Translations under genes and position numbers: made by a program
From: an uncultured Planctomycetota bacterium
GTDB lineage: Bacteria; Planctomycetota; Planctomycetia; Isosphaerales; Isosphaeraceae
Assembly (NCBI GenBank): GCA_963823665.1
Contig: CAWGMQ010000010.1
Coordinates: 928,001 to 992,000, forward strand
DNA: 64,000 nt
Reading direction: 5' to 3'
Notes under the pieces: model-generated
What the model was told of the DNA's origin: nothing
Seen by the model: only the letters and a program-made list of their open reading frames with translations
The model's database searches: none
Shown: in pieces, positions 2,760 through 59,326 of the stretch
Numbering within the stretch: position 1 is the first letter of the stretch
Layout of the letters: each line of letters opens with the position of its first letter

Positions 2760-2824
2760 GGAAAACTTTCGTCAAGAATGGTAAGAGATTGGAAACCGCC
2801 GCTCTCTTGCAACCTCCCCGCATT

Positions 2825-5800
2825 CTAACGTCCCCGCTGCCGGCGCCCGAAGGGTAAGCGGGCGGAAATCCTCCGAGCGGCTGACTTCCCGCCCAGGAGC
2901 AACCCCGCGCCGAAGCCGCAAAAGCCCCCAACCAGGAAGATCTCTGCAGGATCCTTGGACGGCTGCTCCTGAGGCCGGTCAGGTTCCCTTGACCCCAACG
3001 GGCCCGCCGGCGCCTTGGCCAACCCGGCTGCACCTTCCGGGCCGGCAACGAATTTCGGACGAACACCATTCAGCCAGGAAACCGCAACTCTCGGAGCCTC
3101 GACCGATGATGCTGCCGTGTGCGCCGCGGGAGCGACCAATCCAGCGGCTAGCTCGTCCAGATCCGAATCGAGCTCTCGGGCGGTGGAGAGCGCCGCGGCA
3201 AAGAGCGCCGAGCGATCGCAGGCATTGGCAAGATCACGCGCGAACTGCGGCAGTGATCCCGTTCGGTTGATGCTGGACTGCGGAACCACATGGCTCGAGC
3301 GCTCTGCCTGCGGTACCGCCGCAACCGACGGCCCGGCGAAGGCGAAGCTCTGAGTGTTTGCTCCGGCGGCAAACGGCGCGAAGATCAGGACCGTTGCGTT
3401 TGAAGCCGCCACCGCGGTGTGCTCGCTCACCACCGTCGTCACCGTCTGATCCTGGAACGAGGCCGAGCCGGCGCCCTGATTCGCAAGCGGCGCGTGGCCC
3501 TGTCCCGCGGCTGTGATGGTGAGGGAATCAAAGACGTTGATGACATCCGTCTCGGAGCCTTCACCGGACACCTGGCCGTCCAGGGTCGCGTCTTGTAGTG
3601 GGCCGACCTTCGCTCCGGAGTACGCCGTGCCTGCGCCCTGATACGCCACCAGGTCCGAAACAAGCAGGTTCGCGATCGGCGTGCCCAGACCGGTCACCAG
3701 GTTGTATCCTGATTCCGCATCGTATCCGTTGTTGCCGCTAGTGATGACGTTGTAATCGCTCTGCGGCAGACTGTAGAGGGCTTGTTGCACCTCGGTGGGG
3801 CTCGTGCTGTTCAAAACCGGTTGCCCGGCAACTTCCCGGCCCTGATTCACGAGTGCCAGCAAGCCGGCCCACGCAGGCGCCGACAAGCTGGTGCCGCCCA
3901 CGACCTCGAACGGGCTCGACGAGTCCGCCAGGTTGTAAGGATCCGCGATCCACGCACCCGTGGCCGGGTCTGCGACTAACGAAACATCGGGAGTGGTCCG
4001 GCCACCTGTTGCCTGGACTCCCTGCTGGTACGAAGGCTCGGGCTCGAACTGGCTGATCCCGCCTCCGGACCCGATCACCGTGCCCTGCGAGCCCGAGACG
4101 TTGCCCCAGCCGAGCTCATGATCGTAGGCCCCGAGATTGTTCAGATCGAGCGTCGTACCGCCGACCGCCAGCACATTCGGCGAGTACGCGGGATATTCCG
4201 GATCGGCAGCTCCGTAATCTCCCGTGCTCGCCACGAAGCTGACTCCGGGAACGTCGAGCATCGCGTCGTACGTGGCTTCGTCGCTCGCCGAGACACTCTG
4301 CCCTTCCGCGAAGCCCCAGCTCATCGAAACGACCGACACCCCCGGCTGGCCCGCCGCGGTGGCCACGGCCGCCATCAGGTCGGAAAGCGACTGGCTGTTG
4401 GCCTCCACCAGCACGATCTTCGCGCCCGGTGCGATGGCATGCGCCCATTCCACGTCCAGCGATTCCTCGACCTCCCAGTTGTCCGTTCCCGGGCCGTTGG
4501 GATCAGATGCCGGCAGCGATGTGCTCTGGCCGTCCTGCCCGATCACCGTCAAGAACGATGACGCCGGCCCGTACTGGTCGTAAAGCGACGGTCCCGAATC
4601 AGTGAGCCCGAACTGCGTGTCAAACGCATCGACCGCCGGGTAGATGTCTGGGTTGTCATAGGCGTCGACCAGGGCAATTGTCTGCCCGCTGCCATCGGTC
4701 GTGAGGCTGCTCACGCCGTACGCCGACCGAACCTGTGCGGGGCTGTACGCCACGGCTCCGTCTGGCGCCGACAGAGTGGCCACGTTCGTGATCGCATTAC
4801 CGCTGAGCGTGATCGTGTCGACGATGATCGACGCATTCAACTGGGCATCGCCGCTCTCGACTAGCCCGGCCGACGGAGCATAAATCGTGCCCGAAACCCC
4901 TGCCATCGCATTACCGCTGTAGGTGAGCACGTGCGTGTTGGCGGCAGGCTGGATGAAGAGCAGGTTCGCATATGTGCCCGTCGTTGCCGGAGTCAGCTTG
5001 AACGTGCCGTTGCCGCTCAAGGTGATGGCTCCCGAAGTACCGCCGCTCGAGGGGAACGCGCTGTTGGTGTTGTAGATCGTCACTCCCGTGCCGGTGACAC
5101 TCGCATTTCCGGAAACGGAGAAGCCTCCGCCTGTGATGATGTAGATGCCGGCGCTCATGGTCAGGCTGGCGTTGCCCGAGACAGCGATCGCGCTATAGAT
5201 ACCTGACTTGATCGTAGCCGTCGAGTTGCCGCTCAAACTGTACGAGCCGTAATTCGTCAGGCCCGTCTCACTCGGCACAGCGAGCCCTGAGAGCGGATCA
5301 TTCACGACGGCCGCTTTCGTCACCGCCGCCGGAGAGAAGCTCGCGTTGCCGCTCTTCGAGACGCTGCCATGCACGTCGATCACCGCCGCGTTGATCGCGG
5401 CGTTTCCACTGGCCAGAATTGCGCTGGACGAGCTGGAATCGACATACACCCCGCCCGTCAATTTGATGCTGGCGTTCCCTGAAATGCTGAGGGCTCCGCC
5501 GGCCGTGGGGTCCAGCACGATGAGCGACTGACCCATCGTGATCGTACTCGTCGCCGCGCTGCTCGTCAGGAAGTTCGAGTCGCCCGAATAAGTGACGGTG
5601 ATCGCGTGAGTACCCGATGACAACGCCGTTGTGCTGAGTGAGGCAGCTCCGCCTGAGAGAGCGACCGAGCCCAGGTCAACACTGGTCGTGGTGTCGAAGA
5701 AATCAACACTGCCGGTCGGAGTGCCCGAGCCGGGAGCGTTCGCCGTGACGGTCGCTGTGATCGTGACCGTCTGCCCAATGGAGCCGCTGGTTGTCGACGT

Positions 5801-8800
5801 CGTGGCCGCCGTGGTGGTCGTATCCTTGTTGATCGTGAGCGTGCCGGCAACATACGTGAACGAGTAATTGGGATCAACCGCCCCGCTCACGGTGATCGCG
5901 TAGGTTCCGACCGGGCTGGTGATCGTGGCCGTTGTCGACGCGGTTGGCAAGGTTGTGAGACTGCTCGAACTCTCGCCGGTCACGAAGCCAGAATAGCTCA
6001 CATTCGGAGCCGGGTTGGCCTGCCCGTAGACCTTGGACGCGTTATTGGCGGTGATGGTCAGCGGGGCGGTATTGACCGTCAGGGTGCCGTTCTTGTAGGT
6101 GATGCTGTAATTGGAGAGTCCCGAGCCGGTGGCGGCGCTGGGGGTGATGGTCCAGGGTGTGGCGCTGTAGTTGTAATTTCCGGAGCTGCTGAGCGTGGCG
6201 TTGGTGGAGAGCGTGACGCCGCTGATCGAGTCGCCGGAAATCAGGCCGGACTCGGTGAAGCCGGTGGTGCCGCTCAGGCTCACACTGCCGTAAGTGCCGG
6301 AGACGTTGTTGGCGGTGATGGCCAGCGGTGCGGCGATGATCTTGCCGTTCGAGTCGGAGAGCGAACTGGTCGTGAGGTTGTAGTCACCCGAGTCGACGCC
6401 GCCCAGGACCAGGTTGGTGTAGGTGACCGTCTTGCCGCTGCCGACATTCTTATTGTTGTAATTGCCGGTCGCGGAGAGCGTCACGACGTCGCCGGAGACC
6501 GGGGTGGACAGGGTGTAATCGCTGCCCAGGGTTGCGGTGGTGGTGCCGTCGTAGGTCTTCTGCTCGACGGCTCCGTTGAGCGCGGCGGTGATGCTGAGCT
6601 TGCTGATAGTGAGGCCGACCGGAGCGGCGTCATAGGTGATGCTGTAATTGGTGAGCCCCGAGCCGGTCGCAGCGCTGGGCGTGATGGTCCAGGGGGTGGC
6701 GCTGTAGTTATAGTTTCCTGAGCTGCTGAGCGTGGCATTGGTGGTCAAGATGACACCGCTGATCGAGTCGCCCGAGACGAGGCCAGACTCGGTGAAGCCG
6801 GTCGTGCCGTTCAAGCTCACGCTGCCATACGTGCCGGAGACGTTGTTGGCGGTGATGGCCAGCGGTGCGGCGATGATCTTGCCGTTCGAGTCGGAGAGCG
6901 AACTGGTCGTGAGGTTGTAGTCGCCCGAGTCGACGCCGCCCAGGATGAGGTTGGTGTAAGTGACCGTCTTGCCGCTGCCGACATTCTTATTGTTGTAATT
7001 GCCGGTCGCGGAGAGCGTCACGACGTCGCCGGTGACCGGGGCGGACAGGGTGTAATCGCTGCCCAGGGTTGCAGTGGTGGTGCCGTCGTAGGTCTTCTGC
7101 TCGACGGCTCCGTTGAGCGCGGCGGTGATGTTGAGCTTGCTGACGGTGAGGCCGTTCGGGGCGGTGTCATAGGTGATGCTGTAATTGGTGAGTCCCGAGC
7201 CGGTGGCGTCGCTGGGGGTGATGGTCCATTGCGTGGCGCTGTAGTTGTAATTTCCGGAGCTGCTGACCGTGGCGTTGGTGCTCAGCACGACGCTGCTGAT
7301 CGAGTCGCCGCTGACGAGGCCGGACTCGGTGAAGCCGGTGGTGCCGCTCAGGCTCACGCTGCCGTAAGTGCCGGAGACGTTCTTGGCCGTGATGGTGAGC
7401 GCGGCGGTGTCGATCTTGCCATGGGCGTCAGAGAGCGAAGTGTTGGTGAGGTTGTAGTCGCCGGCGTCGAGTCCGCCCAGGGCCAGATTGGTGTAGGTGA
7501 CGGTCTTGCCGCTGCCGGCATTCTTGGTGTCGTAATTGCCGGTGGCCGACATTGTCACGAAGTCGCCGGCGACCGGAGTGGAGAGGGTGTAATCATTGCC
7601 CAGAGCGGCGCTGGTGGTGCCGTCATAGGTCTTCTCCTCGACCGCTCCGTTGAGCGCAGCGGTGATGTTGAGCTTGCTGATGGTGAGGCCCGTCGCGGCG
7701 TTGGCATAGACGATGGTGTAATTGGAGAGTCCCGAGCCGGTGGCGTTGCTGGGGGTGATGGTCAAGGGGGTGGCGCTGTAGTTGTAATTTCCGGAGCTGC
7801 TGAGCGTCGCGTTGGTGGTCAGCGTGACGGCGCTGATCGAGTCGCCGCTGACGAGGCCGGACTCGGTGAAGCCGGTGGTGCCGCTCAGGCTCACGCTGCC
7901 GTAAGTGCCGGAGACGTTCTTGGCCGTGATGGTGAGCGCGGCGGTGTCGATCTTGCCATGGGCGTCGGAGAGCGAAGTGTTGGTGAGGTTATAGTCGCCG
8001 GCGTCGAGTCCGCCCAGGGCCAGGTTGGTGTAGGTGACGGTCTTGCCGCTGCCGGCATTCTGGGTGTCGTAAGTGCCGGTGGCCGACAGCGTGACGACGT
8101 CGTCGGTGACCAGAGTGGAGAGGGTGTAATCATTGCCCAAGGCGGCGCTGGTGGTGCCGTCATAGGTCTTCTCCTCGACGGCTCCGTTAAGCGCGGCGGT
8201 GATGTTGAGCTTGCTGATAGTGAGGCCGTTCGGGGCGGTGTCATAGGTGATGCTGTAATTGGTGAGTCCCGAGCCGGTAGCGTTGCTGGGGGTGATGGTC
8301 AAGGGGGTGGCGCTGTAGTTGTAATTTCCGGAGCTGCTGAGCGTCGCGTTGGTGGTCAGCGTGACGGCGCTGATCGAGTCGCCGCTGACGAGGCCGGACT
8401 CGGTGAAGCCGGTGGTGCCGCTCAGGCTCACGCTGCCGTAAGTGCCGGAGACGTTCTTGGCCGTGATGGTGAGCGCGGCGGTGTCGATCTTGCCATGGGC
8501 GTCAGAGAGCGAAGTGTTGGTGAGGTTGTAGTCGCCGGCGTCGAGTCCGCCCAGGGCCAGATTGGTGTAGGTGACGGTCTTGCCGCTGCCGGCATTCTTG
8601 GTGTCGTAATTGCCGGTGGCCGACATTGTCACGAAGTCGCCGGCGACCGGAGTGGAGAGGGTGTAATCATTGCCCAGAGCGGCGCTGGTGGTGCCGTCAT
8701 AGGTCTTCTCCTCGACCGCTCCGTTGAGCGCAGCGGTGATGTTGAGCTTGCTGATGGTGAGGCCCGTCGCGGCGTTGGCATAGACGATGGTGTAATTGGA

Positions 8801-42200: not shown

Positions 42201-45200
42201 TGCGAGCCGCGCCGATCGTGCCGCCGATCGTGTTGCCCGCCGATTCGATCTGGAGGTCCACCGGGGTCGCCGAAGAAAGCGAGGTGGTGCCCGCAACGTC
42301 GAGGCCGACAACGTTGCCTTCGACGACGTCGTCGGTCGCGCCCGAGCCGTCGAGCAGGATGTTTACATCGGCGTTCGCCGAAATCACATTGAGCGAGCCG
42401 GCCGCGGTGCCGCCGATGGTGTTGCCGATGCTCAGCACCTCGACGCCGAAGCCGCTGTTGGGAAGGGCGTTTTCTCCGGTCACATCCGTGCCGATCAGAT
42501 TGCCGAGCACCACGTTGTCGTCGGCGGCCACCTGGATCTCGACACCATCATTCGTGTTGCCCGAGATCACGTTGCCGGCGCCGGTGCCGGCCGTGGCGGT
42601 TACACCGCCGATCGTGTCGCTTCCGGAGAACGACCCGATCACGACGCCGTTGTAGTTGGGAAGGGCCACGGTCCCGGTGATATCCGTGCCGATCAGATTG
42701 CCCACGACGAGATCGCCGCTGCTGTTGAACTGGACGCCGGCATTCGTGTTTCCCGAGATCACGTTGCCCGCGCCCGTGACCGTGCCGCCGACCGTGTTCG
42801 ACGCCGTGCTGGAGCTGTAAAGCTGGACGCCGTAGGCATTCGGTATGGCGAATGTACCGCTCGCGTCCGTGCCGATCAGGTTGCCCTCGACGAGGTTGTC
42901 GGCTGGGGCATTGATCGTGTCGATCTCGATGCCGATGTTATTGCCCGAGATGAGATTGCCCGCGCCGGAGGCTGCACCGCCAATCGTGTTGGTGTTGGAC
43001 TGAACCCGCACGCCGTGTTCGTAGTTCCCCAACGCCGCCGTTCCCGCGCTGTTGGTGCCGATCTTGTTGCCTTCGACCAGGCTGCCGCCGGCAAGGAGGT
43101 CCACGCCGTCGACGTAGCTCGCGGAGATGACATTGCCCGCCCCTGCGGCCGTGCCCCCGATCGTCAAGCCCGTTGCGTCGGGGCTCACGAAAACGCCATA
43201 GTCATTGGCCAGACCCGCCGCGCCGCTTTCGGTCGTTCCGATCAGATTGCCCTCGATCAGGTCGTTCGCTCCGGTGACATCGATTCCGTTATCGGTATTG
43301 CCCGAGATCACGTTCACGGCGCCGGAGGCCGTTCCGCCCACGGTGTCGTTTGAACCGCCGACATACACGCCATCACCGCCATTGGGGATGGCGAAGGTTC
43401 CGGTTGAGTCCGTCCCCACCAAGTTGCCCGCGATCAGGTCAAATTGATCGCTGTCCCCGATTCCGGCGTATTCGTTCCCGGAAATGACATTGCTTGATCC
43501 GGCCGCCGTGCCGCCAATCGTGTTTTGCGACGCACCCGTGAAGTCAATTCCGTCCTCGTTGGCGAGCGCCGCGTTGCCGGCCGCATTCGTGCCAATCAAG
43601 TTCCCCAGGACGACGTTGCCCGTGGTTCCGGAGTCGTAGAGCGACACGCCGTCGCTCGCGTTCCCGGAGATAACATTGGCCGCGCCGAGGCCGCGCCGCC
43701 GATCGTGTTGTCCGTGGCGCCGTCGAAGATGCCCACACCGACTCCGTCGTTCGCGATTGCGACGGTGCCGGTGACATCGGTGCCGATATAGTTCCCCAGA
43801 ACGACGTTTTCCGACGCTCCGGCCCCTACGATGTCGACGCCATCCAGGGTGTTGCCCGAGATCAGGTTGCCCGCGCCGGCCGCCGTGCCGCCGATCGTGT
43901 TGGCCGTTGGACCCAGGTAGATGTCGACGCCAACGACGGTGTTGGGCACCGCGACGGTGCCGGCCAGGTCGGTGCCGATCTTGTTGCCCAGCACAACGTT
44001 GCCCGTCGTGCCTGTGCCGTCGATGGCAATGCCATCGCCGACATTGCCGGAGATCAGGTTGCCGGCGCCCGAGGCGGTGCCGCCGATCGTGTTGTCGATT
44101 GCGCCGCCATCCACGATCATCCCGGCTTCCGTATTGCCCAGCGCCACGGTGCCGGTGATATCGGTTCCGATCAAATTCCCCTCGACCAGATTGTCGTCTG
44201 CTCCGATGTAGACGCCGGTGGCGTTCCCTGAAATCACGTTACCGGCGCCCATGGCCGTGCCGCCAACCGTGTTGTCTGCCGAGTAAAGGTCCACACCGTC
44301 GCCGTAGCCGTTGCCGATCGCGACTGTGCCGGTATAGTCGGTGCCGATCAGGTTGCCCACGATCACCTCGAAGGCGCCTTGGACGCTGATCCCCGAGTAT
44401 GTGTTGCCTGAGACCACGTTGCCTGCGCCCGCCGCCGTGCCGCCGATCGTGTTGCCCGAATTGCCGAAGAAGAAGAAACCGTAGGAGTTGGCAAGCGCCG
44501 CGGTGCCCGCCTCGTTGGTACCGATCAAGTTCCCTTCGAAGACGTTGGCGCTGGCTCCCGTCCCCGTGAAATAGATCCCGTATTGGCTGTTTCCCGAGAT
44601 CACATTGGCGGAAAACCCGCCGATCCCACCGATGGTGTTGTCCGACGCGCCCAGGTCGAATGTGATCCCGAAGGCATTGGGCAGCGCAACGGTGCCGGTC
44701 ACGTCGGTGCCGATCAGGTTGCCCGCGACCACGTTGCCGTTGGAGGTGTTCCCTGTGATCTCGACGCCGTTCGTCGTGTTGCCCGAGATCAAGTTGCCCG
44801 CGCCGGAAACCGTGCCGCCGATCGTGTCCGATAGGCCCCCATTAAGCTGCACGCCGTCGGCGCCGCCGCCGAGGGCGACCGTGCCGGTCTTGTCGGTGCC
44901 GATGTAGTTGCCCGCCACGACATCAGCCGTGTCGGAATCGATTTCGACATTGTTCGATCCATTTCCGGCGATGACGTTGCGTGCGGCGGAGGTCGTACCC
45001 CCGATGGTGATGCCGGTCCCGTTGCCGCTATCGATGCCGTCCAGAGTGTTCGAGATCGCCACGGTGCCGGCGGCATCGGTGCCGATGTAGTTCCCGGCGA
45101 TGAGGTCGTCCGTGGAGTCGAAGAGATAAATCCCGCCGCCGCTATTGCCGGAGATGACGTTGCGGTAGCCGGCGCTGGGGCCGCCAATGGTGTTTGCGGA

Positions 45201-47094
45201 CGCGCTCGAGACGATGTCCACGCCAACGCCGCCGTTAGCAAGCGCCGTGCCGCTCGAGTTGAGGCCAATCGTGTTCCCCGCCACGACATTGTCGCTCGTG
45301 CCCGAGTCGGTGATCTCGATCCCTTTTTGCGTGTTGCCCGAGATGATATTGGCGGCGGCCGATGTGCTTCCGCCGATCGTGTTGGCGGTGGCGCTGGCCC
45401 CAATTATCACGCCGTTTACGTTGGCCAGCGCGACCGTTCCCGCGGTGTTCGTGCCGATCAGGTTGCCCGCGACCACGTTGTCGGATGTACCCGTGTCGTA
45501 GATGCCGACCCCGGCGTAGGTGTTGCCGGAGATGATATTCTTGGGGCCAATCGTGTTGTCTGTCGGGCCGCCATCCGCGTCGCCGAAAAAGAGGATGCCG
45601 GTGGAGTTGCCCAGCGCGGTGTCGTTCGCGGAATCCGTACCGATGTAGTTATACTCAACCACGTTGCCCGACGTTCCCGTGTTGCCGACGGTCATTCCGT
45701 CTACCGTGTTGCCCGAAATGACGTTGGCTGACGCATACGAACTGCCGCCGATCGTGTTACTGGTCGAGCCTGCCTGCACCAGCACGCCAGACTGGTTGGC
45801 CAGAACCATCCCGCCGGTGGCGGCTGTGACGCCAACGAGATTCTGCATTACCAGGTTGCCGGAAGCCCCGTCAAGCGAGATCCCGTAGACATTGCCGGCG
45901 GCGATATTGCCGGTGATCGTGTTACCGGTGCTGGATCCGTACACGCTGATCCCGGAGCTCGCGTTGCCCACGGCGGCCGTTAAAGCTTGATTCGTGCCCA
46001 GGTCGTTGCCTTCCACGAGGTTGTCGGTTGTGCTTGACCCGTCAATATCGATGCCGTCGGTCGCGTTGCCGGAAATGAGATTCCCGGCGCTGCCGGTCCC
46101 CCCGATCGTGTTGTCGGTCGCGCCGTTCCAGATGTTCACACCGAGGCTATTCGGAATGCCCGCGGTGCCCGCGGCGTTCGTGCCGATGTAGTTGCCCACG
46201 ACCAGGTTGTTTGACGCGCCGCCTGACCCGTTGATCACCACTCCGTACTTCGTGGCGTTTCCTGAGATGATGTTCCGCGCAGTGCTCGTAAGACCGCCGA
46301 CCGTGTTGCCGCTTGAGCCGACGACCTGCACGCCGCTCATGCCGTTAGCAAGAGCCACGGTTCCCGTGACATCGGTTCCGATCAAGTTTCCCTCGACGAG
46401 ATTGCCGCCGGCCGGGTCGTCGAGATACACTCCGCTCGCGGTGTTGCCGGAAATCAAATTGCCGGCGCCGGTGCCCGGAGTGGAGGTCAGGCCGCCGATC
46501 GTGTTGCCCGATCCGACGTAGACCTCGATTCCGGCTGCCGCCGTTGGCCTCCGCCGTCTCGCCGTTGAAGTCGGTGCCGACGTAGTTGTTCGTGATCTGC
46601 CATCCCGAGCCCGCCACCAGGATGCCGTTGTCCGAGAATTCATTAATCACAAGCCCCTTCACCACGCCGCCACTGGCGGAAAGCAAGAGTCCGTTTTCTC
46701 CTGCGCCGGCGCTTGAGCCGACGAGCTCGATGATGGGAGTGCCGGTGTATCCCGGCTGGGTGGTGCCGTCGATGGTCACCGAAGCCGTGATGTCCGGCAG
46801 CGCGGAAAGCGGCGTGATGACCTGCGGGCCGGTGCCGATGCTGAAGTCGATCGTCGACCCGGCGTTTCCATTGGCACTCGTGATCGCCTGGCGCAGTGAA
46901 CCGGGCCCGCTGTCGGCCGTCGTGTTGACGGTATACGTCGACGGCATCATCCGTCTTTCCAGCCCGTGGAGCTCGGGCTGGAACGGCTCTGCCTTCTTCC
47001 GCTTCTTCAGCTCGAAGCGCCAGCGGCTCGTCTTCCGCCGCTTGTGTTTCCCGTGACCATAGCCGCCCGCACCCGGATCATGAGCAGTCGACAT
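2825..47094 (-). CDS. Giant multidomain secreted/surface adhesin-protease (~14,750 aa reconstructed across 7 single-base frameshifts)
   Basis: Eight overlapping minus-strand ORFs join in mid-repeat or mid-motif at ~46533, ~43686, ~30045, ~26027, ~24249, ~18603 and ~12299. Each junction is repaired by one base. Only the first piece has a signal-like N-terminus and only the last has a terminal tail. Confidence 0.82.
3650..4760 (-). other. Peptidase S53 (sedolisin/kumamolisin) catalytic domain within the giant protein
   Basis: YSPAQVRSAYG...GSGQTIALVDAY...WEVEESLDVEWAHAIAPGA (catalytic Glu/Asp), ASTGDYG (oxyanion Asp), PDVSLVAD, VGGTSLSAP (catalytic Ser), YNLVTGLGTP. Confidence 0.9.
6065..11703 (-). 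repeat. Tandem array of ~10.5 x 537-bp (179 aa) near-identical units, each an MBG-like domain plus a YDG domain
   Basis: The YDG marker gtc(a/g)taggtcttct recurs at ~6548, 7085, 7622, 8159, 8696, 9233, 9770, 10307, 10844 and 11381, a 537-bp spacing. Confidence 0.95.
12229..18603 (-). CDS. Giant protein, frame segment: FG-GAP repeats, PKD-like domains, RTX calcium-binding repeats, zinc metalloprotease, PPC domain
   Basis: FGAAVAAVG...LIGSP...GAAFL (FG-GAP); TI(D/N)WGDGS (PKD-like); GGSGNDIIY repeats; AHELGHLSGLEH; DYYSFTATAG...DTALTIYDSAGNVVAYDDDS (PPC). Confidence 0.88.
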   Translation of the reverse strand, partial: APGAGQGVAYVFDANPDSTTFGSLLLTLSFPGNTGLVPAQFGAAVGGLGNEVAVGAPYADSPMNPTLGKVYLFDDTTGALLTTIANPDYETKSFGAAVAAVGDDVLIGSPLDANAGPQGAAFLYGTSGSMLQTFLPPDGGGEFGAAVAAVGSNVLIGSPLDDGGAGAAFLFFSSPSFNSPGSPEMFVQPDGGGGEFGASVAGTGNQALIGAPGANLGTHDAGAAYLFDADPSSPTFGNAIGAFQEPTPTTGDAFGTAVGIDDGAIVVGAPAAGAVDLYQPSASLSVSATTTYATLSYDSVIVSGTFMDVNPDAALTATIDWGDGSSPTTVPLPAGSYAFSAPHEYTTDASYKYNIGVTLSDGTDLTAFAQTPLLISDPAPVFAAPGLVLSSNSILENGTEMLSGTIVSPGGIHTNTLTINWGDGSLFTTIVLPPGDDTFSTSHTYLNNPPGVASGEYTISASVINEEEKSGSASTEVTVSNVPPQFNSSNLELSSSKIFEGGTVTLDGSFTDPGTLDPHTVTINWGDGSTSTTLVGMLGQIEETSPGQYTYTASHLYLNNPPGEPTGGSFAIQVSVSDDVSTTTATTSIEVDNAAPSVRIESAGSPLSGMISLKGVVTDPGILDTETVVWNVTNNGVQIDSGTGATISFNTPTSIGVLVATATATDSDGGQGSDSVQIVVIDQNQVNVTIDPTTGITVSVGTSVLSNAPIQSPETEVMALILGNQVTVDAHTMTAPVELDGYGNSESLTGGSGNDILVANGGANSLVGGPGDDTLYSNQGDDSLYGGTGNDTYFINPGTDPLVDDLSGFNTLNFSISTVAITINLALETGQPQQVNSDGAVVTLIGSFDGYVASPNGDNVIGNDQDDLIYGGSGNTTITGGSGNNSIVGGSGNDVIYGGSTNTTITSGTGNDSIVGGSGNDIIYGGSSSSTLTGGSGNDSIIGGSGNDIVYGGSGNTTITGGSGNESIVGGSGNDIIYGGSGNTTLTGGGGNSTLVGGTGNDIIYGGTGNTTLTGGNGNASIVGGSGNDIIYGGSNNNTITGGSGNDSIIGGSGNDIIYGGSGNTTITGAGGSDTLIGGSGNDIIYGGSNPSTLTGGSGGESIIGGSGNDIIYGGSNNNTITGGSGNDSIIGGSGNDIIYGGSGNNTITGGGGNSTLIGGTGNDIIYGGSNPSTLNGGSGGESIVGGTGNDIIYGGSNTNTIVGGSGNDSIIGGSGNDIIYGGSGNNTITGGGGNSTLIGGTGNDIIYGGSNGSTLNGGSGGESIVGGTGNDIIYGGSGNNTITGGSGNNSIVGGGGNDIIYGGSGNNTITAGGGNDSITGGSGNDIIYGGSQNSTITGGSGNDSINGGAGNDIIYGGSGNTTITGGSGSDSITGGSGNDIIYGGAGDNTITGGSGDDYINGGKADDVIYGGSGNSTISAGDGADSITGGSGNDIIYGGPGNDTIDGGTGNATIAAGTGYDSITAGGGFDSWFGFFGANNMTLTDTMFSAYGGTGQAIEDPISGFQNAVLAAGAGDFTLDASGFSGGTLLIAGTGNDTLVGSSNDDTLVSGTGNDSLVGGGGNDTFAFNSGSSGSQTIDEASDTANAWLDFSQAPAGVNINLSAAGAQAVIPGTLTLTLSNPMGIADVLGSGYDDTIIGNARDNTLIGGGGDDLIAGLGGNDLLEGGVTRTIYLDFSDYELPGQHIYTPDEESAIESQLVADYADFSYVFTLSPPESGVYTTIYFNDPVLTGLEGGIATGIDWRDLDIAGSTTLTEAGFQITPADQAGVNVNDLLGSPGEPAATSADFVALSATIAAHELGHLSGLEHGDSFGPIGSGIYSGVNPDLYVPAFTGPVDATETVRHIMASGASVNATLFDAIDDPYFGEREAIKLAYGEDGSPVNEQTAPHYTMATAQAVALEPVVVPDTDLEGVNADRSFDVTAADVVGYLSTDSQGNSYTDYYSFTATAGTLINFEVMSAVLNRPQGAFDTALTIYDSAGNVVAYDDDSFQDTDSTILDLTLAETGTYYAMVTSSPKSVSLNEPLTGAYELFMYTFATGASTAGGLSTADTMPLGLASAGDTMYAGSGSDTIVAGTGNDTVSAQLQADTIIYGSGNVNFIGKCLTWTSPRLSTSPLLSRASPSP
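12980..13600 (-). other. Metzincin-like zinc metalloprotease domain within the giant protein
   Basis: HELGHLSGLEH (HExxHxxGxxH) at ~13180-13212, a downstream Met-turn-like HIMASG at ~13060, and an upstream TIYLDF strand. Confidence 0.82.
13610..16350 (-). repeat. RTX / hemolysin-type Ca-binding nonapeptide array (dense core ~14230-15995)
   Basis: Roughly 65 consecutive GGxGNDxxx-type nonapeptides in the core (GGSGNDIIY / GGSGNNTIT / GGSGNDSII). Confidence 0.95.
18525..24290 (-). CDS. Giant protein, frame segment: beta-solenoid repeats, second parallel beta-helix module, PKD, start of FG-GAP
   Basis: WTNSGTIEAT repeats; YIVTTTADMGDGSLRAAI; NTIGGT...GNVISGN repeats; LSYFWTFGDGATGTGPDPIHAYTKPG (PKD). 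Confidence 0.85.
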   Translation of the reverse strand: MRPPSGMTAALAPRTPLVLEGTIDANSSASYILIAGTNWTNSGTIEATAAGAQLDLGGTNWTNSGTIEATNGGYVVSSGTWTDDGLMSVDSTSLINLQGTFSVDSGSSFAGAGDVYLEGTLDNTGETLTLNDPEFSFAVVGGTIDGGTVETTDGAALVASLAGGTLDGVTIDGTLDVNNGGHSITVTDGLTLNGTLYLGPADPANGTSTLDFQGAQTLGGTGLIVLGGDGSYPERINTVSSGGDSGTLTIGPNITIDGTAASIGYDSGPGTETPLVLEGTIDANSSASYIQIFGTNWTNSGTIEATAAGAQLGLSGTNWTNSGTIEATGGGYVTASGTWTDNGVISADSTSQVNLEGTFSVGSDSSFAGSGLIDLAGTLDNTGEILTLNDPTLAFTLDAGTIDGGTVETTGGAALVGDGALDGVTIDGTLDENENGDTITVTDGLTLNGTLDLGPIDPANGSSTLDFQGAQTLGGTGLIVLGGAGYEPEEINTASSGGDSGTLTIGPNITIDGTAAFIGYNGGGTETPLVLEGTIDASTSASYIQIIGTSWTNTGTIETTDGGQLVLNGTNWTNSGTIAATNGGFAVVEGTWSDDGVVSGGAGASVYLLGTGSTLPGSSFAGAGDVFLNGTLDNNGDTLSLDDPALEFALDGGTIDGGTVETTNGATLVGGAGTLDGVTIDGTVDMTTIGDTITVTQGLTLNGTIDLGPTDASGISELNFQGAQTLSGTGSIVFGNFYEGDQINTASSGGDSGALTIGPNITVQGTDGVIGYDHGGPETPIVLEGTIDANTSGGSVQIYGTDWTSSGTIAATNGGTINLETAPSNFTPGLLTGGTWSVGADSTLNFPGGNIATDAATIILDGPGASFPALSSLAYIAPGGTLELSDGASFTTTTSLLNQGTINVADPGILNIEGNFTLAAGGQLDVGVGGYSPGSGFSQLNVTGQLTLGGALDVTLLGGFTPVLGNSFPIINYGSVTGAFSSESGLEISSSLNFRPVTNPTQFDLDVIESYIVTTTADMGDGSLRAAIEAADLSSGPFAIDFDIPGGGVQLISPLSPLPFITAVVDLDATTQPGYAGAPIIQLDGTSTGSASGLVLAAGSAGSEISGVVISDFSQDGILIESSGNVVQSSYIGTNASGTAAAPNQIGIVIGAGASGNTIGGTSAPAGNVISGNASYGVQITGSGATGNVVEGNMIGTDPSGTVAIANATGVEIASGASSNTIGGTAAGDGNLISGNLGDGVLLNGAATADNVVAGNQIGTDTTGETPLGNAGAGVDVAGATDSTIGGVSGGGRNVLSGNAEGVSVSGGATGTLIAGNLIGTDANGISAVGNTNSGIAVTGALNTTIGGTTAVALNVISGNGGLNNGINGIEVEGGASGTLIQGNYIGVNQDGTGPLANTGSGIVDIASPGTTIGGTAEGAGNVISANAYVGVSIQGSASSGALVLGNYIGTDKTGKIALGNLGDGLELGDVSDVTIGGTAAGVGNVISSNSGAGIDLVGSDSGVLIQANKIGTDPTGSVALGNGTGILIQYGSSDNTIGGSAAAAGNTIAFSTGTSLHTGLGVDVDASAGTGNTIRLNSIFSNHGLGIGLGGNVVTPISATPLTGPNNYENYPVITAVTSTGGMTTVMGSLESTANTTFMLDFYTLSSSNASGYGEGRYVLGSGPVPIDASGTAHFTFSFPTPATGVQFVTATATDPAGNTSEFSQAFGSDIPPTAKISFTKLTVDEGVSIPFNGSGSIDPNNGSLSYFWTFGDGATGTGPDPIHAYTKPGVETVTLTVDDGFGGVSTATATVTVSDVPPVFTPDSFTPPETFSSSTSGDGFGTAVAAIDGNVVIGAPQAGNGGAVDLYDGVPTDDGVSTPYRYGSLIHVFQDPGATAGDLFGASVADFGDDLIVGRPARARAWRMCSMRTRIAPRSARCS
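24154..26027 (-). CDS. Giant protein, frame segment: beta-solenoid repeats
   Basis: Same repeat family as the neighbouring segments. Bounded by indels at ~26027 and ~24249. Confidence 0.75.
25506..30161 (-). CDS. Giant protein, frame segment: beta-solenoid repeats (true frame ~30045-26027)
   Basis: The in-frame repeat text LTVTGGLTLSNGSILIG... is flanked by out-of-frame R/P/S-rich ends. Confidence 0.75.
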   Translation of the reverse strand: MAARSKRRAALPCSPPTVAAPWMASPSTAPSTWRRTIPRLTVTGGLTLSNGSILIGNGAGSIYCDLTFQGAQTLGGTGTIVFGGGNLYNNRLDTASSGGDSGTLTIGSGITIEGQSGSIEPDSGGAYPLILQGTIDDNVSGGEIQVDGTNWSNLGAIAATSGGSVFAQGTWTDNSVVSADSTSTVYLGGTFSVGSGASFTGTGTVAVAGTLDNSGTTLTLDDSALTFEMGGGAIDSGDIVTTNGAALFGSGYGGTLEGVTLDGTLDMATFNSQLAVTGGLTLSNGSILMGSAGLTYSYLTFQGAQTLGGTGTVVFDGTLNTDEIITASSGGDSGKLTIGSGITIEGQSGYIGFNFGGTEYPLILQGIVDDNVSGGQIQVDGTNWSNLGTITATSGGSVFAEGTWTDNSVVSADSTSTVYLGGTFSVGSSASFTGTGTVAVSGTLDNSGSTLTLDDSALTFEMDGGEIDSGDIVTTNGAALFGTGGTLAGVTLDGTLDMATYSSVLAVTGGLTLSNGSILIGNGSGSSGDLTFQGAQTLGGTGTVIFGGGNAYNNRLDTASSGGDSGTLTIGSGITIEGQNGFIGLDGGGTEYPMILEGTIDDNVSGGQIQVLGSNWTNSGTITATSGGSVFAQGTWTDNSVVSADSTSTVYLGGTFSVGSSASFTGTGTVAVSGTLDNSGSTLTLDDSALTFEMDGGEIDSGDIVTTNGAALFGTGGTLAGVTLDGTLDMATYSSVLAVTGGLTLSNGSILIGNGSGSSGDLTFQGAQTLGGTGTVIFGGGSAYNNRLDTASSGGDSGTLTIGSGITIEGQNGFIGLDGGGTEYPMILEGTIDDNVSGGLIRIFGTNLTNSGTLEATGGGTLDLTGTNLTNSGTIEAAGDGEFDIYPTNWTNSGTIAATTGGVGYLEGSFTDPGAVSVDATSRIYLDGTVSVDSGSSFAGAGAVNLRGTLDNTGETLTLNDPGLAFMLDGGAIDGGTVETTGGAALVATNPGGTLAGVTLDGTLDMTVAYPTLDVTGGLTLDDGTIDLGSQVAGGTFGTLTFQGAQTLGGSGSVVFGSDGDNYIDTESSGGDSGTLTIGPNITIDGTAGSIGSDGGGTETPLVLEGTIDANSSASYIQIYGTNWTNSGTIEATAAGAQLGLNGTNWTNSGAIEAANGGIVTATSSNWTNSGTIEATAAGSQLGLNGTTGTNSGTIEATGGSSLGLTGTDLTNSSTIEATGGATLDVSPTNWTNAGTIEATTGSTAYLENSFIDPGVISVDSTSQIYLDGTFSVDSGSSFAGTGVMYLRGTLDNTGETLTLDDSGLAFMLDGGAIDGGTVETTGGATLIAPNSAGTLAGVTLDGTLDMTGAYSTLDVTGSLTLDDGTIDLGSQVAGGTFARSHSRAHRPWAAPARSSLAPTATTSSTPNPVAATPAPSRSGPTSRSTGLRASSGMTAVAPRPRWSSRARSTRTSAGAPYVSTAPTGSTQARSKPATAAPCTLKATGQAQAQSKPAAAAPATSRVTGPMTAPSTRIRRPPSISMAPSPSNPAPHSPVPALSISRALSTTPARL
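30013..43686 (-). CDS. Giant protein, frame segment: right-handed parallel beta-helix repeats, then beta-solenoid repeats
   Basis: 4544-aa ORF with dozens of NTIGGTAAGAGNVISGN...GNLIGTDxTGT units, a cap GPNLFQDFPVIT...TATATDLSGNTSEFS, then VSWINPSGGDWDDPSNW. Confidence 0.88.
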   Translation of the reverse strand, partial: GAANVISGNASDGVSLYDSGTTGNVVLGNLIGTNAAGNAALANEDGIDFTGASQNTIGGTAAGSSNVISGNEYAGIGDSDQFDLIAGNLVGTDSTGTFAIPNGGDGVYVGGSNDTVGGTASGAVNVISGNTDNGIDVTGANDLIEGNLIGTTESGAAGLANDYGVFVSPDATGLTIGGTAAGAGNVISASYVDGVDLLAGGSLVEGNKIGTNSAGTAALGNYEHGVRVQSNTNTIGGAASGAGNLISGNNIGIEIDTINAPADNLVEGNLIGTDASGTFAIPNAYGVQLYSSSTASNTVGGTVTGAGNVISGNTNAGVQFNSSGDLVVGNLIGTDITGTVALPNYNGVVIGSFSGSDTIGGVTATAGTGAGNVISGNTNDGVEIQVAADDNVVLGNLIGTDVTGENALPNSGFGVEVLSIGNTIGGTAAGSLNVISANADVNILLDGSGATDDVVEGNVVGLDVAGTTSLSSATPVDLQIESAGNTIGGTIGAARNVISGAGSEGISLDYSGATANLIEGNYIGSNVADTAVVANYNFDIWELNAAEGNTIGGTVSGAANVIVGNPTAYAMFLTSDTLVEGNLIDSNPTGTAVVGQTQGIVIGTTAADLIDSGNTIGGIVSGAGNILTNTGIWLEHGAQDNLVEGNISGLDITGTVKLTTGGAGIEVDGPDNTIGGTTAGAANVLAGSSSDALDLIGTSSTGNLVEGNLIGTDITGTVSIRNGGAGISITGGATLNTIGGTTPGAANVISSSDDGLVIGNTSTANLIEGNKVGTDITGTVSLYNLNGLLIVGASNTIGGTAAGAGNIISGNIGYGGGDPNTGWGLWLDGPAATGNVVEGNLIGLDATGEHILGNTTNAGILVDGATDNTIGGTSADAANVISGNLRGIDINEVGATGNIIEGNLIGTDQSGTVALGNTGEGIVVAYAQANTIGGSAAGAGNVISGNVYGINILDGATDIVVQGNLIGLSSAGSAALGNSIDGILLQGGTTGDTIGGTTATPGTAAGNVISGNTDYGIEISETGTTANVVEGNLIGTDITGTVSIANGQGGVEIDPGASGNTIGGLTATPGTGGGNVISGNNVFGINDLGHSNLIAGNLIGLAAGGTVALANNGNGVQVNAGDTIGGTAAGAGNIISGNIAVGILFDGNDNLLAGNKIGTDVTGTAAIANVDGGVDLYSSSTGNTVGGLTASPGTGAGNLISGNNAAGIADLGGSNWIAGNLIGTDSSGTVAVGNKGDGIDVYARGDTIGGTAAGAGNVISGNTGAGVSFVGSGATGNSVMGNYIGTDIAGTVAIANGWGVGLDSGASGNTIGGLTATPGSGAGNVISGNDGVGIGDRGGSNVIAGNLIGLSASGTVALANASDGMDLDAGGDTIGGTAAGAGNVISGNLGDGISDSGANWIAGNLIGTDSSGTIAVPNDYPGIYIWVGGSTIGGSTAGAGNVISGNIHGGIMVYASANLIEGNKIGTNSDGSADLANTSQGIILDASGNTIGGLTATPGTGAGNLLTGNYGAGVIDLSSGDNLIEGNLVGTDAAGTVALAYATDGIDVSNDDTVGGTAAGAGNVISGNGHYGIYVGGSGNLVAGNKIGTDITGTVAITNGVYGIGIGGGATGNTIGGLTATPGTGAGNLISGNTRAGINDLGGSDLIAGNLIGTDAAGTVALANIGDGIDGSASADTIGGTAAGAGNVISGNTNDGVLLDGSDNLIAGNFIGTSVTGDAAIGNGGNGVGIRGGSSGNTIGGLTATPGTGAGNVISGNTFSGIYDANGSNLIAGNLIGVSVSGTTALANDGYGIFAFSDTIGGTAAGSGNVISGNGLYGIDDAGSNLIAGNLIGTDISGTVAVPGSEGIFSVGTGSTIGGTTAGAGNVVSGNSSAGITLYIGATGNLVEGNKIGTNFDGSAALANDGDGIDIDAGDNTIGGTTAGAGNLISGNSGNGVEIENSGEVVAGNMIGTDITGTVALPNDVFGVVVAGGSNTIGGTVAAAQNLISGNMSAGIQISSSTATDNVVEGNRIGTTLDGASALGNGAGFGVLIEYFATGNTIGGTTAGAANLISGNAVGDVIIYGHGTTDNVVAGNLIGTNADGTLTVAFENGAGVKIYGGAAQNTIGGTASGAGNLISGNEGDGVQIIDGYQDYVQGNRIGLDRSGTSALANSAYGISLSQHSAAQTTSGGYTSGPGSNTGSNVIGGTGSGAGNVVSGNGAGGIFITAGIMDLVAGNYVGVDPTGTFVIPNGSGIMTRDGTGNTIGGTVSGSGNVVAGNNNFNLAIVDTADVVAENFLGTDATGTVALGGAGGVLIQGAMNTLGGTVAGARNVISGNSGYALSIVGQGANNNLVEGNYIGTDSTGTVVLANNSYGVDIYSGASNNTIGGTATGASNVISGNVTGGLDIYGAGGATDNLVQGNFIGTDKTGTVALGGQGLGVIIDAGATNNTIGGVGTGAGNVISGNDGDGVIISDNGTSANLVEGNFIGTDPTGTFAVANAASGVEVASSASLTTIGGTAAGAGNVISGNTQDGIILTGSGFTLIVGNKIGTDFTGTLAIGNGAGVELDTGASGNTIGGTALGAGNLISGNAGDGVEITGSGTTDNLVQGNLIGTDVSGGGAVPNAGGVAVEAGASQNTIGGSAAGAGNLISGNTGTGVELLDTFDNVVQGNRIGTNESGTSALSNAGTGILVSDGSSGSSQSGSSPGGSSSSGSVSSQGTHTGHNVIGGTGSGAGNVVSGNGAGGIFITSGIMDLVAGNYVGIDPTGTFAIPNGSGGIEIQSGTGNTIGGTSAGAGNVISGNDAGGLTLLAGSSLIEGNLIGTNATGDVALGNQGVGVYLLSGTSGTTIGGTVAGAGNVISGNYSYGVDLNDTSNILIAGNNIGTDITGTLRLGNGKPEMLIGGGTSDVTVGGTTALAGNVISGGGEGILIQGTATTGNLVEGNEIGTDRSGTIAVGSVGFGISIGDNSSDNTIGGTAAGDGNIIAYCGGDGVVVGYGAGDNATGNAILTNEIYANSGLGINLGDEGVVVLNDSSGHTGPNLFQDFPVITSAVTVGGMTTLDGTITETPDTTYLLQFFSNPAADPSGYGQGQTYLTSADVMTNYMGVGAFSVGAPSEIAPGNYVTATATDLSGNTSEFSADTIVAQSNSVSWINPSGGDWDDPSNWSDDTVPTAGNDVSISIAVSNPITHSSAVADAVNSLTSSDPIMLLAGSLTIGTTADLSAAMTLNGGEIDGGTINLTNGAELVVTGNGNNTLAGGVTINGTVDMATNNAAQLTVTGGLTLNGTILMGDQSGYNTNGILNFVGTQTLGGTGSIVFGYSGFNQINTASSGGSDTGTLTIGPNITIEGNSGYIGYDDGGTQTPLVFQGTVDADATAGTISIFGTGWTSSGTLEATGTGQLNLFGTNWTTTGTISATSGGYVQANGTWTDDAAISTDFLSSVGLFGTFSVGLSASFAGSGAVEVSGTVDNSGGTLTLNDSGLSFVLSGGEIDGGTVVTSNGAELTIYGTSAFADGVTVDGTVHMVENSPVLDVTGGLTLNGTILLGSGQVSQPAILNFTGSQTLGGTGEILFGLSGDNQINTASSGGSDTGTLTVGPNITIDGNSGLIGFDSGIAQTPIVIQGTVDEDTGGGDIEMYGSGWSSSGTLEATGGALDLFGTNWTSTGTISATSYGYVEAVGTWTDNGVVSADPSSIVSLDGTFSVGSNASFSGGGTVDINGTVDNSGGTITLNNSGTVVALNGGEIDGGDVVTTNAAELYVSRNSTFADGVTIDGDVDAGTLLAPVITVTGGLNLNGTMLLGDQNSYNTGVLNFVGSQTLSGTGSIVFGLASDNQINTASSGGADTGTLTIGPNITIEGNNGEIGYDGGGAGTPMIIQGTIDADTSNGSIEVYGSGWSSSGTLEASGGYLDLFGTNWTSTGTIAATNGGYAEGVGSWTDNGVVSADSTSVVVLRGTVSLGSNASFAGTGNVLVEGTIDNSGGTLTLDDSALEVSLDNGEIDGGTVVMTNGATLFITNNGTLADGVTIDGTIDDGREYAPELTVTGGLTLNGSILLGNPSSPNTGILNFVGSQTLGGTGTVVFGLIDSNQINTASSGGADTGTLTIGAGITIEGDNGGIGGNDGGPQTPLIIQGVVDANTSGGNIQIFGTNWTNTGTLEATGGATLQAEGTNWTNSGTISATSGGSVYATGTWTDNGVVSADSSSMVDLSGTFSAGSSATFSGSGLVQLSGTLDNSGGTLTLNDSALTVELYSGEIDGGSVVTTNGAALFVSDPYNTLADDVTIDGTLDMATYDGLLAVTGGLTLDGTILLGNAMGSTGSALIFVGAQTLSGTGTISLGSGYNQIESASSGGDSGTLTIGPNITIQGDSGSIGYNNGGALTPLVFEGTIDANLSGGTIQIHGTNWINTGTIEGTNGGNLNFYGTNWTNSGTIEVTGGMVSATGTNWTNSGTIEATSGGIAVLAGSLTDPGVVSVDSTSVSYLRGTVSVDSGSSFAGSGVVDLEGTLDNTGETLTLNDPELSFGIAGGTIDGGTVETTGGAALFATNSGGTLDGVTLDGTLDMATNYSAPHGHRWPHAE
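43596..46643 (-). CDS. Giant protein, frame segment: right-handed parallel beta-helix repeats
   Basis: GNTIGG...GNLISGN...GNLIGTD repeats in frame from ~46533 to ~43686. Confidence 0.82.
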   Translation of the reverse strand: MNSRTTASWWRARDGRSRTTTSAPTSTARRRRPTAAAGIEVYVGSGNTIGGLTSTPGTGAGNLISGNTASGVYLDDPAGGNLVEGNLIGTDVTGTVALANGMSGVQVVGSSGNTVGGLTSTARNIISGNATKYGVVINGSGGASNNLVVGNYIGTNAAGTAGIPNSLGVNIWNGATDNTIGGTGSAGNLISGNATDGIDIDGSSTTDNLVEGNDLGTNQALTAAVGNASSGISVYGSSTGNTITGNIAAGNVYGISLDGASGNLVMQNLVGVTAATGGMVLANQSGVLVQAGSTSNTIGGSSYASANVISGNTVDGMTVGNTGTSGNVVEYNYIGTDSANDTALGNSTGILFFGDADGGPTDNTIGPKNIISGNTYAGVGIYDTGTSDNVVAGNLIGTNTAGTVALANVNGVIIGASATANTIGGSTSAAANIISGNTQKGIEITDSGTSDNVVAGNTIGLNSSGTALANGGVGVDIVSSASANTIGGPSAGYRNVISGNSGGGIYLFDSTDDLIAGNYIGTDAAGTVAISNTLDGIDSGNGTGITIGGTTSAARNVIAGNGSNNVEIDSDTADVVAGNYIGTDKTGTVALGGGADGVQLNGGLSDTIGGTVSGAGNLISGNTTNGVEITGNTSNGNVVAGNLIGTDVTGTVALPNAFGITFDLGASDNTIGGIGGFSANVISGNSQYGIYFTGTGASANVFEGNLIGTNEAGTAALANSYGFFFFGNSGNTIGGTAAGAGNVVSGNTYSGISVQGAFEVIVGNLIGTDYTGTVAIGNGYGDGVDLYSADNTVGGTAMGAGNVISGNATGVYIGADDNLVEGNLIGTDITGTVALGNTEAGMIVDGGAIDNTIGGTASGAGNLISGNVGDGIAIDGTGTTGNVVLGNKIGTDLAGTVAVPNTVVGVDIYLGPTANTIGGTAAGAGNLISGNTLDGVDIVGAGASENVVLGNYIGTDVTGTVAIANDGVGVGIFDGATDNTIGGAASARPMLSPGTRATACRSTTPEPRATSSWGT
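46345..47094 (-). CDS. Giant protein, N-terminal segment with a planctomycete LEPRxLL-like signal and a CSLREA-like start
   Basis: Basic leader (KHKRRKTSRWRFELKKRKK), FQPELHGLERRMMPS, then TYTVNTTADSGPGSLRQAITSAN. Confidence 0.85.
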   Translation of the reverse strand: MSTAHDPGAGGYGHGKHKRRKTSRWRFELKKRKKAEPFQPELHGLERRMMPSTYTVNTTADSGPGSLRQAITSANGNAGSTIDFSIGTGPQVITPLSALPDITASVTIDGTTQPGYTGTPIIELVGSSAGAGENGLLLSASGGVVKGLVINEFSDNGILVAGSGWQITNNYVGTDFNGETAEANGGSRNRGLRRIGQHDRRPDLHSGHRRRQFDFRQHRERSVSRRPGRRQSRRGKLDRNRCHGNRGSC

Positions 47095-48718: not shown

Positions 48719-48785
48719 GGGATCTCGCTCGCCCGCGTCGCCGGCAGTCAATCGTACGATGCCCCGATTGTCGCCCTTCGCTCCG

Positions 48786-51363: not shown

Positions 51364-51630
51364 GGAACCCGAGCCTTCTCCAAAACCTGGAGCGATACTC
51401 GAGTATGGCAATCAGTTCCCACCACCGGCAAGACTGGGCTGTTCGTCGCTGTACTGGCAATCCTCGACGGCCACCGACCGCCGCACAGGGATCTCGCCGA
51501 GCCTCGTGGCCGAGCCGTCAATCGCCGCGTTCAAGGACAACCGCGATCCGGGCCTGGAGTCGATTTTCACGTACATCGACTCGCATTCGGGCGCGAAAGA
51601 GTAGGCAGCGCAAGCTTGGTGCGCAGCCGC

Positions 51631-59314: not shown

Positions 59315-59326
59315 CTGCGCAAGATC

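Follow-up and report, generated by a model that had tools for sequence, protein, structure and literature searches.

Eight adjoining reading frames in an Isosphaeraceae assembly very probably form one 44-kb gene for a predicted giant surface protein

Eight reading frames at one locus

The window analysed here is a stretch of 64,000 nucleotides (nt) from an uncultured soil bacterium of the Isosphaeraceae (G000:C10:928001-992000), whose 16.46-Mb genome assembly (G000) consists of 12 contigs and is 92% complete. Its minus strand carries eight long open reading frames (ORFs) that tile positions 47094 to 2825, with a glycosyltransferase gene of family GT4 close behind them. An original prediction, made from the letters of the DNA, held that these ORFs meet in mid-motif, that each meeting point needs a single base, and that together they encode one polypeptide of 1.4–1.5 MDa. 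The first part is confirmed. The stop-free frames of neighbouring ORFs overlap by 302, 643, 197, 565, 167, 217 and 307 nt, and a codon model places one switch in each overlap, always mid-motif and always needing one base, at about 46533 (+1), 43690 (−1), 30046 (+1), 26023 (−1), 24243 (+1), 18601 (−1) and 12299 (−1); these are joins J1 to J7. The four DNA strings quoted with the prediction are also present, at 24244 (given as 24245), 23470, 26021 and 27043. A Viterbi pass over the entire span returned the same seven switches and one more at 2887 in the low-complexity tail, which was rejected because the tail of an orthologue (G001, below) aligns there in the same frame.

Joined in frame, the pieces sum to 14,751 amino acids (aa) and 1.435 MDa, with no in-frame stop across 44 kb and a uniform GC content at third codon positions (GC3) of 0.79–0.86 along the pieces. 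The 10–171 residues trailing each join are out-of-frame sequence. Among the eight ORFs, only ORF1 bears the conserved leader and only ORF8 the conserved tail; a Shine–Dalgarno (SD)-like motif accompanies just one of the eight starts, and that ORF begins out of frame. At 14,751 aa the product lies well above a giant-gene threshold of 5 kb or 5,000 aa if joined, two of the joins being corrected by contigs; pieces 1–4 exceed 5,000 aa only through J1–J3, and the DNA of piece 3 by itself measures 13.6 kb. The composition (18% Gly, 13% Thr, 10% Ser, 9% Ala, 7.5% Asn; four Cys; 3,413 Ser plus Thr) is the acidic, Gly/Thr/Ser-rich and Cys-poor one of giant surface proteins, and adhesin domains accompany it. 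Taken together with homologues that read in frame over all joins, the best reading is the single polypeptide of the original prediction: very probably, this is one intact gene for a protein of ~14,750 aa and ~1.44 MDa. A promoter and terminator scan of window positions 1–3200 stayed at chance level.

The seven joins

Contigs from four public soil runs (X1–X4; library type not on record, and the source sample may be among them) were compared with positions 29900–49800, which cover J1–J3, so that the read check proposed with the original prediction was run for three of the seven joins. Two were bridged: contigs free of substitutions cross J1 (X1) and J3 (X3), each one base shorter than the window, in agreement with the codon model, which puts an extra window base at both. 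Fourteen other listed zero-substitution contigs inside the gene contain no gap. J2 has no bridging contig among those listed, and X2 and X4 bridge no join.

Comparative evidence extends to the remaining joins. A genome of the same genus contains a colinear orthologue, flanks included, of ~12,650 aa and 72–87% DNA identity (G001:C4:1349976-1387953). It shows a net one-base difference at J2, J3, J4, J5 and J7, and its repeats show the same at J1; of its own 21 predicted switches, all but one fall at other sites than those of G000. Homologues cross all seven joins in frame and stop-free, and in a further relative (G034:C128) one uninterrupted frame of 6,533 aa spans the whole contig. Long housekeeping genes supplied a control. 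Five of eight, retrieved by five family searches, are frameshifted, namely rpoB, rpoC (three shifts within ~150 nt), ileS, the gyrA copy on contig C4 and a second secA-like gene, and three are intact (the main secA, the gyrA/parC copy on C11 and an ileS paralogue). The window flanks are broken too, near 54417, 55657, 56782 and ~62500. On the five family searches and the stretches fetched from the >16-Mb genome, seven breaks per 44 kb do not exceed the background of the assembly. The frameshifted essential genes sit on contigs C3 (rpoB/rpoC) and C4 (ileS, gyrA).

It is strongly supported that all seven breaks are single-base mistakes of an error-prone assembly, and for J1 and J3 this is directly shown. 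A gene expressed through programmed frameshifting or slippage was considered and rejected: the surplus base at J1 and J3 is missing from other contigs, and homologues run in frame. It is assembly error that hides the gene, not recoding biology. Real frameshifts in a decaying pseudogene, for which the number of breaks and an insertion sequence element 2 kb upstream might speak, are already largely refuted as an explanation and extremely improbable, since no piece has an in-frame stop in 44 kb, GC3 is uniform, breaks are similarly frequent or more so in essential genes, and two joins are corrected by other contigs.

Several observations weigh against assembly error at every join. Two of the seven are bridged, each by a single low-depth contig (3.7 and 2) for which the position of the gap within the contig is not listed, and J4–J7 lie outside the stretch compared with contigs. 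G001 is broken at J6 with the same missing G, protein P0001, 90% identical, stops immediately past J7, and a further protein (P0227) ends at a J4-type repeat site. The lack of read support at J4–J7, the shared J6 break and the end of P0001 would all suit a gene truly split at one or more joins, most plausibly at J6, into a beta-helix protein of ~9,500 aa and an FG-GAP/RTX/protease protein of ~5,250 aa, or else a genus-wide recoding site. We consider this quite unlikely. In five G000 paralogues and the G033 homologue, the frame runs on unbroken across the same FG-GAP motif; ORF7 is without leader or SD-like motif; the out-of-frame tails differ in length and sequence between G000 and G001; and no X XXY YYZ heptamer or A/T run is seen at J6. 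Moreover, at J6 a G-run precedes CGCC, and GCGC is enriched in switch contexts: 16 of 21 in G001, 6 of 10 in G033, 33 of 74 in G000 (a count that takes in the noisier contig ends C6:1-7500 and C8:1-7100) and 4 of 7 in the giant gene, against 15% of random 27-mers. Given this enrichment and the read-through at J6, the recurrent breaks (J6, P0001, P0227) are best read as probable motif-linked errors. Methylation as their cause is unsupported, since a PF00145 C5-methylase was not found in the 92%-complete G000.

Domain architecture and known relatives

The features of the locus are collected in Table 1; the protein lies on the minus strand, with its N-terminus at high coordinates. The leader lacks a classical hydrophobic signal peptide (its hydropathy is low) and has no Pfam match, the LEPR-XLL and CSLREA models scoring only below cut-off. 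It is followed by a parallel beta-helix block of ~4,100 aa and by repeats of ~250 aa that are unmatched in Pfam and NCBIfam. The structure model of this repeat most resembles TibA (Z 14.8; root-mean-square deviation (rmsd) 4.2, 210 residues aligned), EtpA (Z 14.0), UpaB (Z 13.7) and Ag43 (Z 13.0), at rmsd 3.6–4.8 across the four, a common fold that is no proof of function. Further fold neighbours are SRRP (Z 12.4) and, at Z 10–12, pectate lyases and tailspikes.

Table 1. Features of the window and giant paralogues elsewhere in the genome (pLDDT, predicted local distance difference test; E, expectation value)
Feature	Position	Strand	Evidence or remark
Single giant coding sequence, ~14,750 aa, 8 ORFs in assembly	2825..47094	-	ORFs, codon model, contigs, homologues
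Basic leader ending LE.R(M/L)	46939..47094	-	conserved in 8/8 aligned N-termini
CSLREA-like start and parallel beta-helix block 1	34300..46932	-	NosD/Beta_helix, TIGR03804; pieces 2-3 contain 48 GNxIGT-type motifs
~16 repeats of ~250 aa, predicted right-handed beta-helix	21300..34290	-	structure model pLDDT 92.6
Second CSLREA-like and beta-helix block	19160..21260	-	translation
PKD domain	18906..19154	-	PF18911 E 2.4e-20
FG-GAP repeats (putative propeller), then PKD-like domains	16500..18854	-	PF14312 E 7e-18; PKD_4
RTX Ca-binding nonapeptide block, internal	13633..16356	-	PF00353, 30 stretches; 41 GGxGxD motifs
Metzincin-like Zn protease	12960..13600	-	HExxHxxGxxH at 13180-13212, Met-turn candidate 13057-13074
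PPC domain	12562..12786	-	PF04151 E 7.8e-9; ColG collagen-binding domain Z 12.8, rmsd 2.0, 114 aligned
YDG/MBG stalk of ten tandem 537-bp units, 88-94% identical	6096..11700	-	YDG x10, MBG_2 x12; self-BLAST
Big_3_5 Ig domain and DUF7305-like domain	4796..5803	-	DUF7305 E 9e-5, below cut-off
Sedolisin-type (S53) serine-carboxyl protease	3677..4747	-	sedolisin E 1e-16 by PDB search
C-terminal tail with PAGP motif, GFCG-containing hydrophobic segment and basic cluster	2825..3010	-	alignment A1
J1, extra base in assembly	46530..46536	-	397 window bases spanned by a 396-nt X1 contig with a single gap and no substitution
J2, missing base	43686..43694	-	G001 orthologous DNA one base longer; no listed contig bridges
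J3, extra base	30043..30048	-	152 bases spanned by a 151-nt X3 contig with a single gap and no substitution; G001 93% identical, one-base gap
J4, missing base	26022..26027	-	G001 85% identical, one base longer; paralogous repeat at 27043
J5, extra base	24240..24246	-	G001 repeats; paralogous repeat at 23470
J6, missing base, least certain	18600..18605	-	G001 broken at same site; 5 G000 paralogues and G033 read through
J7, missing base	12295..12300	-	G001 reads through; 52/102 homologous proteins align across
GT4 glycosyltransferase, 65 nt behind giant gene	1014..2759	-	conserved neighbour
GT2/GT7C-like glycosyltransferase, divergent from giant gene	47897..48718	+	syntenic in G001
Second GT4, frameshifted near 54417	53519..54731	+	near giant gene in G001 and G033
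Giant paralogues in G000	C8:523442-548495, C8:790417-812115, C5:237766-256484, C6:527244-554868, C6:1-31459, C3:1870000-1905158		

Toward the C-terminus lie two protease domains. The metzincin-like one has its HExxHxxGxxH motif in 83 of 102 homologues, with archaemetzincin-type folds at a middling Z of 7.9–8.8 and karilysin at E 0.04; speaking against the assignment, the region was modelled at low confidence (pLDDT under 50), the consensus Met appearing in alignment A2. The S53 domain, undetected by Pfam, contains the Glu-Asp-Ser triad and the oxyanion Asp (Asp and Ser motifs aligned, ExxxD by eye); its activation prodomain was not found in 4700–5701, a region that holds Big_3_5 and DUF7305. 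That both proteases are active is about an even bet. A toxin assignment was rejected, RTX toxin models falling far under their cut-offs and matching the nonapeptide repeats alone.

The 537-bp YDG/MBG array is missing from the G001 orthologue and present in the G033 homologue, from which stalk length appears to vary through module swap. This difference, an exact 447-bp repeat at 27818/28514 and the many paralogues in the genome raise the question of a span inflated or made chimeric by mis-assembled repeats or paralogues; we deem this very unlikely, as colinearity with G001 extends from the GT4 downstream to the genes upstream, the repeat copies have diverged (88–94%) and the G033 homologue has a YDG array of its own.

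A linker joins the S53 domain to the hydrophobic-basic tail. The hydrophobic part of the tail is short, ~15 aa, and its hydropathy window of 1.71 is the highest in the protein; no NCBIfam or Pfam model matches it. Tails of this type occur in 22 of 121 family genomes, at 1–5 copies each, and gave two marginal matches in a phylum-wide sample of 200 other genomes. The tail Cys ([GAS][FLWY]C) is found in 18 of 30 loci, within the hydrophobic part, and among the loci listed the sequence upstream of the tail mostly shares DUF7305-like or S53 domains. The protease module was found in 14 of 61 relatives searched, own genome counted. G000 itself encodes at least five further chains of this kind, ~6,200–10,100 aa long and each broken a few times; several of these giant paralogues terminate in a dockerin-like C-terminus in place of the tail.

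Several known adhesin systems resemble the giant protein. With TibA, Ag43, EtpA, HMW1 and serine-rich repeat proteins the giant protein shares a right-handed beta-helix, a Ser/Thr-rich body and an adjoining glycosyltransferase gene; glycosylated adhesins of this kind have dedicated transferases, TibC, EtpC/HMW1C and GtfA/B. The giant protein differs in being 10–15 times longer and in carrying two proteases. It has the right-handed beta-helix passenger of autotransporter and two-partner systems; a C-terminal beta-barrel, an adjacent TpsB pore and LPxTG were not detected in the last piece, tail or flanks by Pfam or NCBIfam. LapA, SiiE and MpIBP are RTX giant adhesins exported by type I secretion. 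These, and the 36,806-aa beta-helix protein of Chlorobium chlorochromatii named in 10.64898/2026.06.07.730766, resemble the giant protein in size class, RTX repeats, Ig-like stalk and beta-helix. However, where type I adhesins carry their RTX repeats C-terminally, the block here is internal, with ~3,600 aa between it and the stop. Cys-containing C-terminal sorting signals (MYXO-, JDVT-, Synerg- and CGP-CTERM), as far as the available text of 10.1101/2023.06.07.544157 describes them, likewise have a hydrophobic segment followed by a basic cluster, frequent Cys and, in some genomes, several copies; the Cys of the tail lies inside its short hydrophobic segment and is not invariant, and a processing enzyme was not identified, no search aimed at one having been made. 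The giant protein would work like a giant adhesin yet, on the features tested, falls outside the type I RTX, autotransporter and Cys-CTERM groups.

Size alone does not set the protein apart. In the accessible portions of the literature, proteins of at least 10,000 aa are frequent in Planctomycetota and 7,478 database proteins reach at least 10,624 aa (10.1101/2023.11.21.568195), and in one corpus 3,650 proteins reach 10,000 aa or more (10.64898/2026.06.07.730766). The largest planctomycete gene among 29 genomes measures 36,239 bp (PMC5177795), and for Paludisphaera borealis a single gene longer than 10 kb is given (PMC5352709). Planctomycete giant proteins (PMC5177795, PMC5352709, PMC11573180, PMC12673574) are alike in being very long, repeat-rich predicted surface proteins with RTX and Ig-like domains, many per genome; the gene here differs at 44.3 kb, and the accessible portions of those four papers mention neither a dedicated glycosyltransferase nor this tail. 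If the single-gene reading is true, it exceeds the 36.2-kb maximum of PMC5177795 and stays far below the Omnitrophota giants; no record is claimed, and the protein lists of West-Roberts et al. and of Amaral and Devos may contain larger planctomycete proteins. Omnitrophota giants share the PVC (Planctomycetes–Verrucomicrobia–Chlamydiae) superphylum, a length above 10,000 aa and peptidase domains that might process the chain. According to the parts available of 10.1101/2023.11.21.568195 and 10.64898/2026.06.07.730766, they reach 85,804–147,155 aa with many membrane helices and metabolic enzymes, whereas the protein here consists mostly of repeat scaffold with a single hydrophobic tail. The upper planctomycete genome size is given as 12.4 Mb in one abstract; G000, G001 and G105, at ~16 Mb each, lie above it.

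Public catalogues hold the gene in fragments, as the original prediction expected; its further claim of eight unrelated hypothetical proteins goes too far, four of the eight ORFs having Pfam matches over cut-off. ORF4, for instance, is catalogued as a 1,498-aa protein that includes its out-of-frame tail. The repeat profile's best 150 representative matches all measure 5,922 aa or less, so any tally of huge proteins in genomes of this kind is probably too low unless frameshifts are corrected.

The linked glycosyltransferase, proposed function and neighbourhood

Close homologues of the GT4 gene directly behind the giant gene occur in 26 of 121 family genomes. Thirty loci were fetched, representing 28 distinct genes, 27 of them with upstream DNA. 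At 17 of these 27 the GT4 gene stands directly beside such a giant or surface-protein gene: 13 (in 12 genomes) lie 15–233 nt behind the tail, two right behind other surface-protein ends and two convergent with such ends. Against a dedicated partnership stand the ten of 27 loci with no such gene directly adjacent, and the 18 of 30 tail loci that have no GT4 within 1.5 kb (12 have one). The linkage is moreover counted among kin, which are not independent, and six of the 13 tail–GT4 pairs helped build the tail model. The match of GT4 to GtfA-type Gtf1 is weak (E 4e-4). By analogy with glycosylated beta-helical adhesins, the chances that GT4 acts on the giant protein may be put at about half.

The proposed mechanism runs as follows. 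The basic LE.R leader would route the protein to export, and the hydrophobic-basic tail would hold it in a membrane, a role as anchor that we somewhat favour. Between them, ~9,000 aa of N-terminal beta-helix together with the RTX, PKD and YDG/MBG repeats would form a rigid, calcium-stiffened rod, perhaps a few hundred nanometres long on a rough estimate from general beta-helix geometry. The rod may attach to neighbouring cells, polysaccharides or surfaces. Near the anchored end, its two protease domains may trim contact-site proteins or release the rod by cleavage, and GT4 might glycosylate the Ser/Thr-rich body. An adhesin-type surface rod is likely on this evidence, and the protein is most likely a membrane-anchored, glycosylated adhesin. 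A point against it is that export machinery was not identified; type I secretion genes were absent among the 16 flanking ORFs scanned, the rest of the genome not being searched.

The same giant gene could instead have a mainly enzymatic or predatory role, its product being a scaffold that brings proteases, and perhaps beta-helices of polysaccharide-lyase type, to the surface of a substrate or prey. Compatible with this are the catalytic motifs in both protease domains, the PPC (pre-peptidase C-terminal) binding domain and the pectate lyases and tailspikes among the fold neighbours (Z 10–12), and West-Roberts et al. propose such a role for Omnitrophota giants in the accessible part of their paper (10.1101/2023.11.21.568195). 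We hold it to be unlikely: enzyme domains make up less than 6% of the chain, the best fold matches are adhesins, and a glycoside hydrolase, a many-helix membrane region and a SecA-like domain, all typical of Omnitrophota giants, were not found. The best overall explanation, which we consider probable, is one intact gene for a cell-surface filament, interrupted in the assembly by one-base errors and working through the mechanism outlined above.

More tentatively, the case may extend beyond this locus. A subgroup of large-genome soil Isosphaeraceae might build megadalton, protease-bearing beta-helical surface filaments by a dedicated and so far undescribed route that combines an LE.R leader, a lineage-specific sorting tail and a glycosylating GT4 partner, their genes (at least six of 6,000–14,750 aa in G000) being largely invisible in databases as they are fragmented in short-read assemblies and frameshifted in long-read ones. 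A search that excluded subscription journals returned no publication that describes this architecture, the tail or the linkage to GT4. Within a size class that is already known and not new, it is for the tail and its GT4 neighbour that no description was found. If the proposal is true, the tail motif and partner glycosyltransferase give a testable handle on the role of planctomycete giant genes.

Other genes surround the locus. The GT2 gene, the ORF at 50473-51411 and the second GT4 gene lie upstream of the giant gene here and also near the giant genes of G001 and G033. A DUF772/DDE transposase gene (48844-50266, +), 2 kb upstream of the giant gene, is missing at that site in G001; the extra base that splits it, at 49451, is absent from three runs, and its high contig depth suggests many copies of the transposase gene. 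Within the glycosyltransferase cluster, two minus-strand ORFs are without a Pfam match, one (50473-51411) also found near giant genes in G001, G033, L040 and L124, the other (51631-53388) conserved in G001. Ser/Thr kinase genes flank the locus at 1-1374 (-) and 56481-58188 (+), the latter split near 56782 and whole in G001. At 58235-61036 (+), a SnoaL/DUF4440 protein is followed by a Gly-rich TPR protein, and both are conserved in G001.

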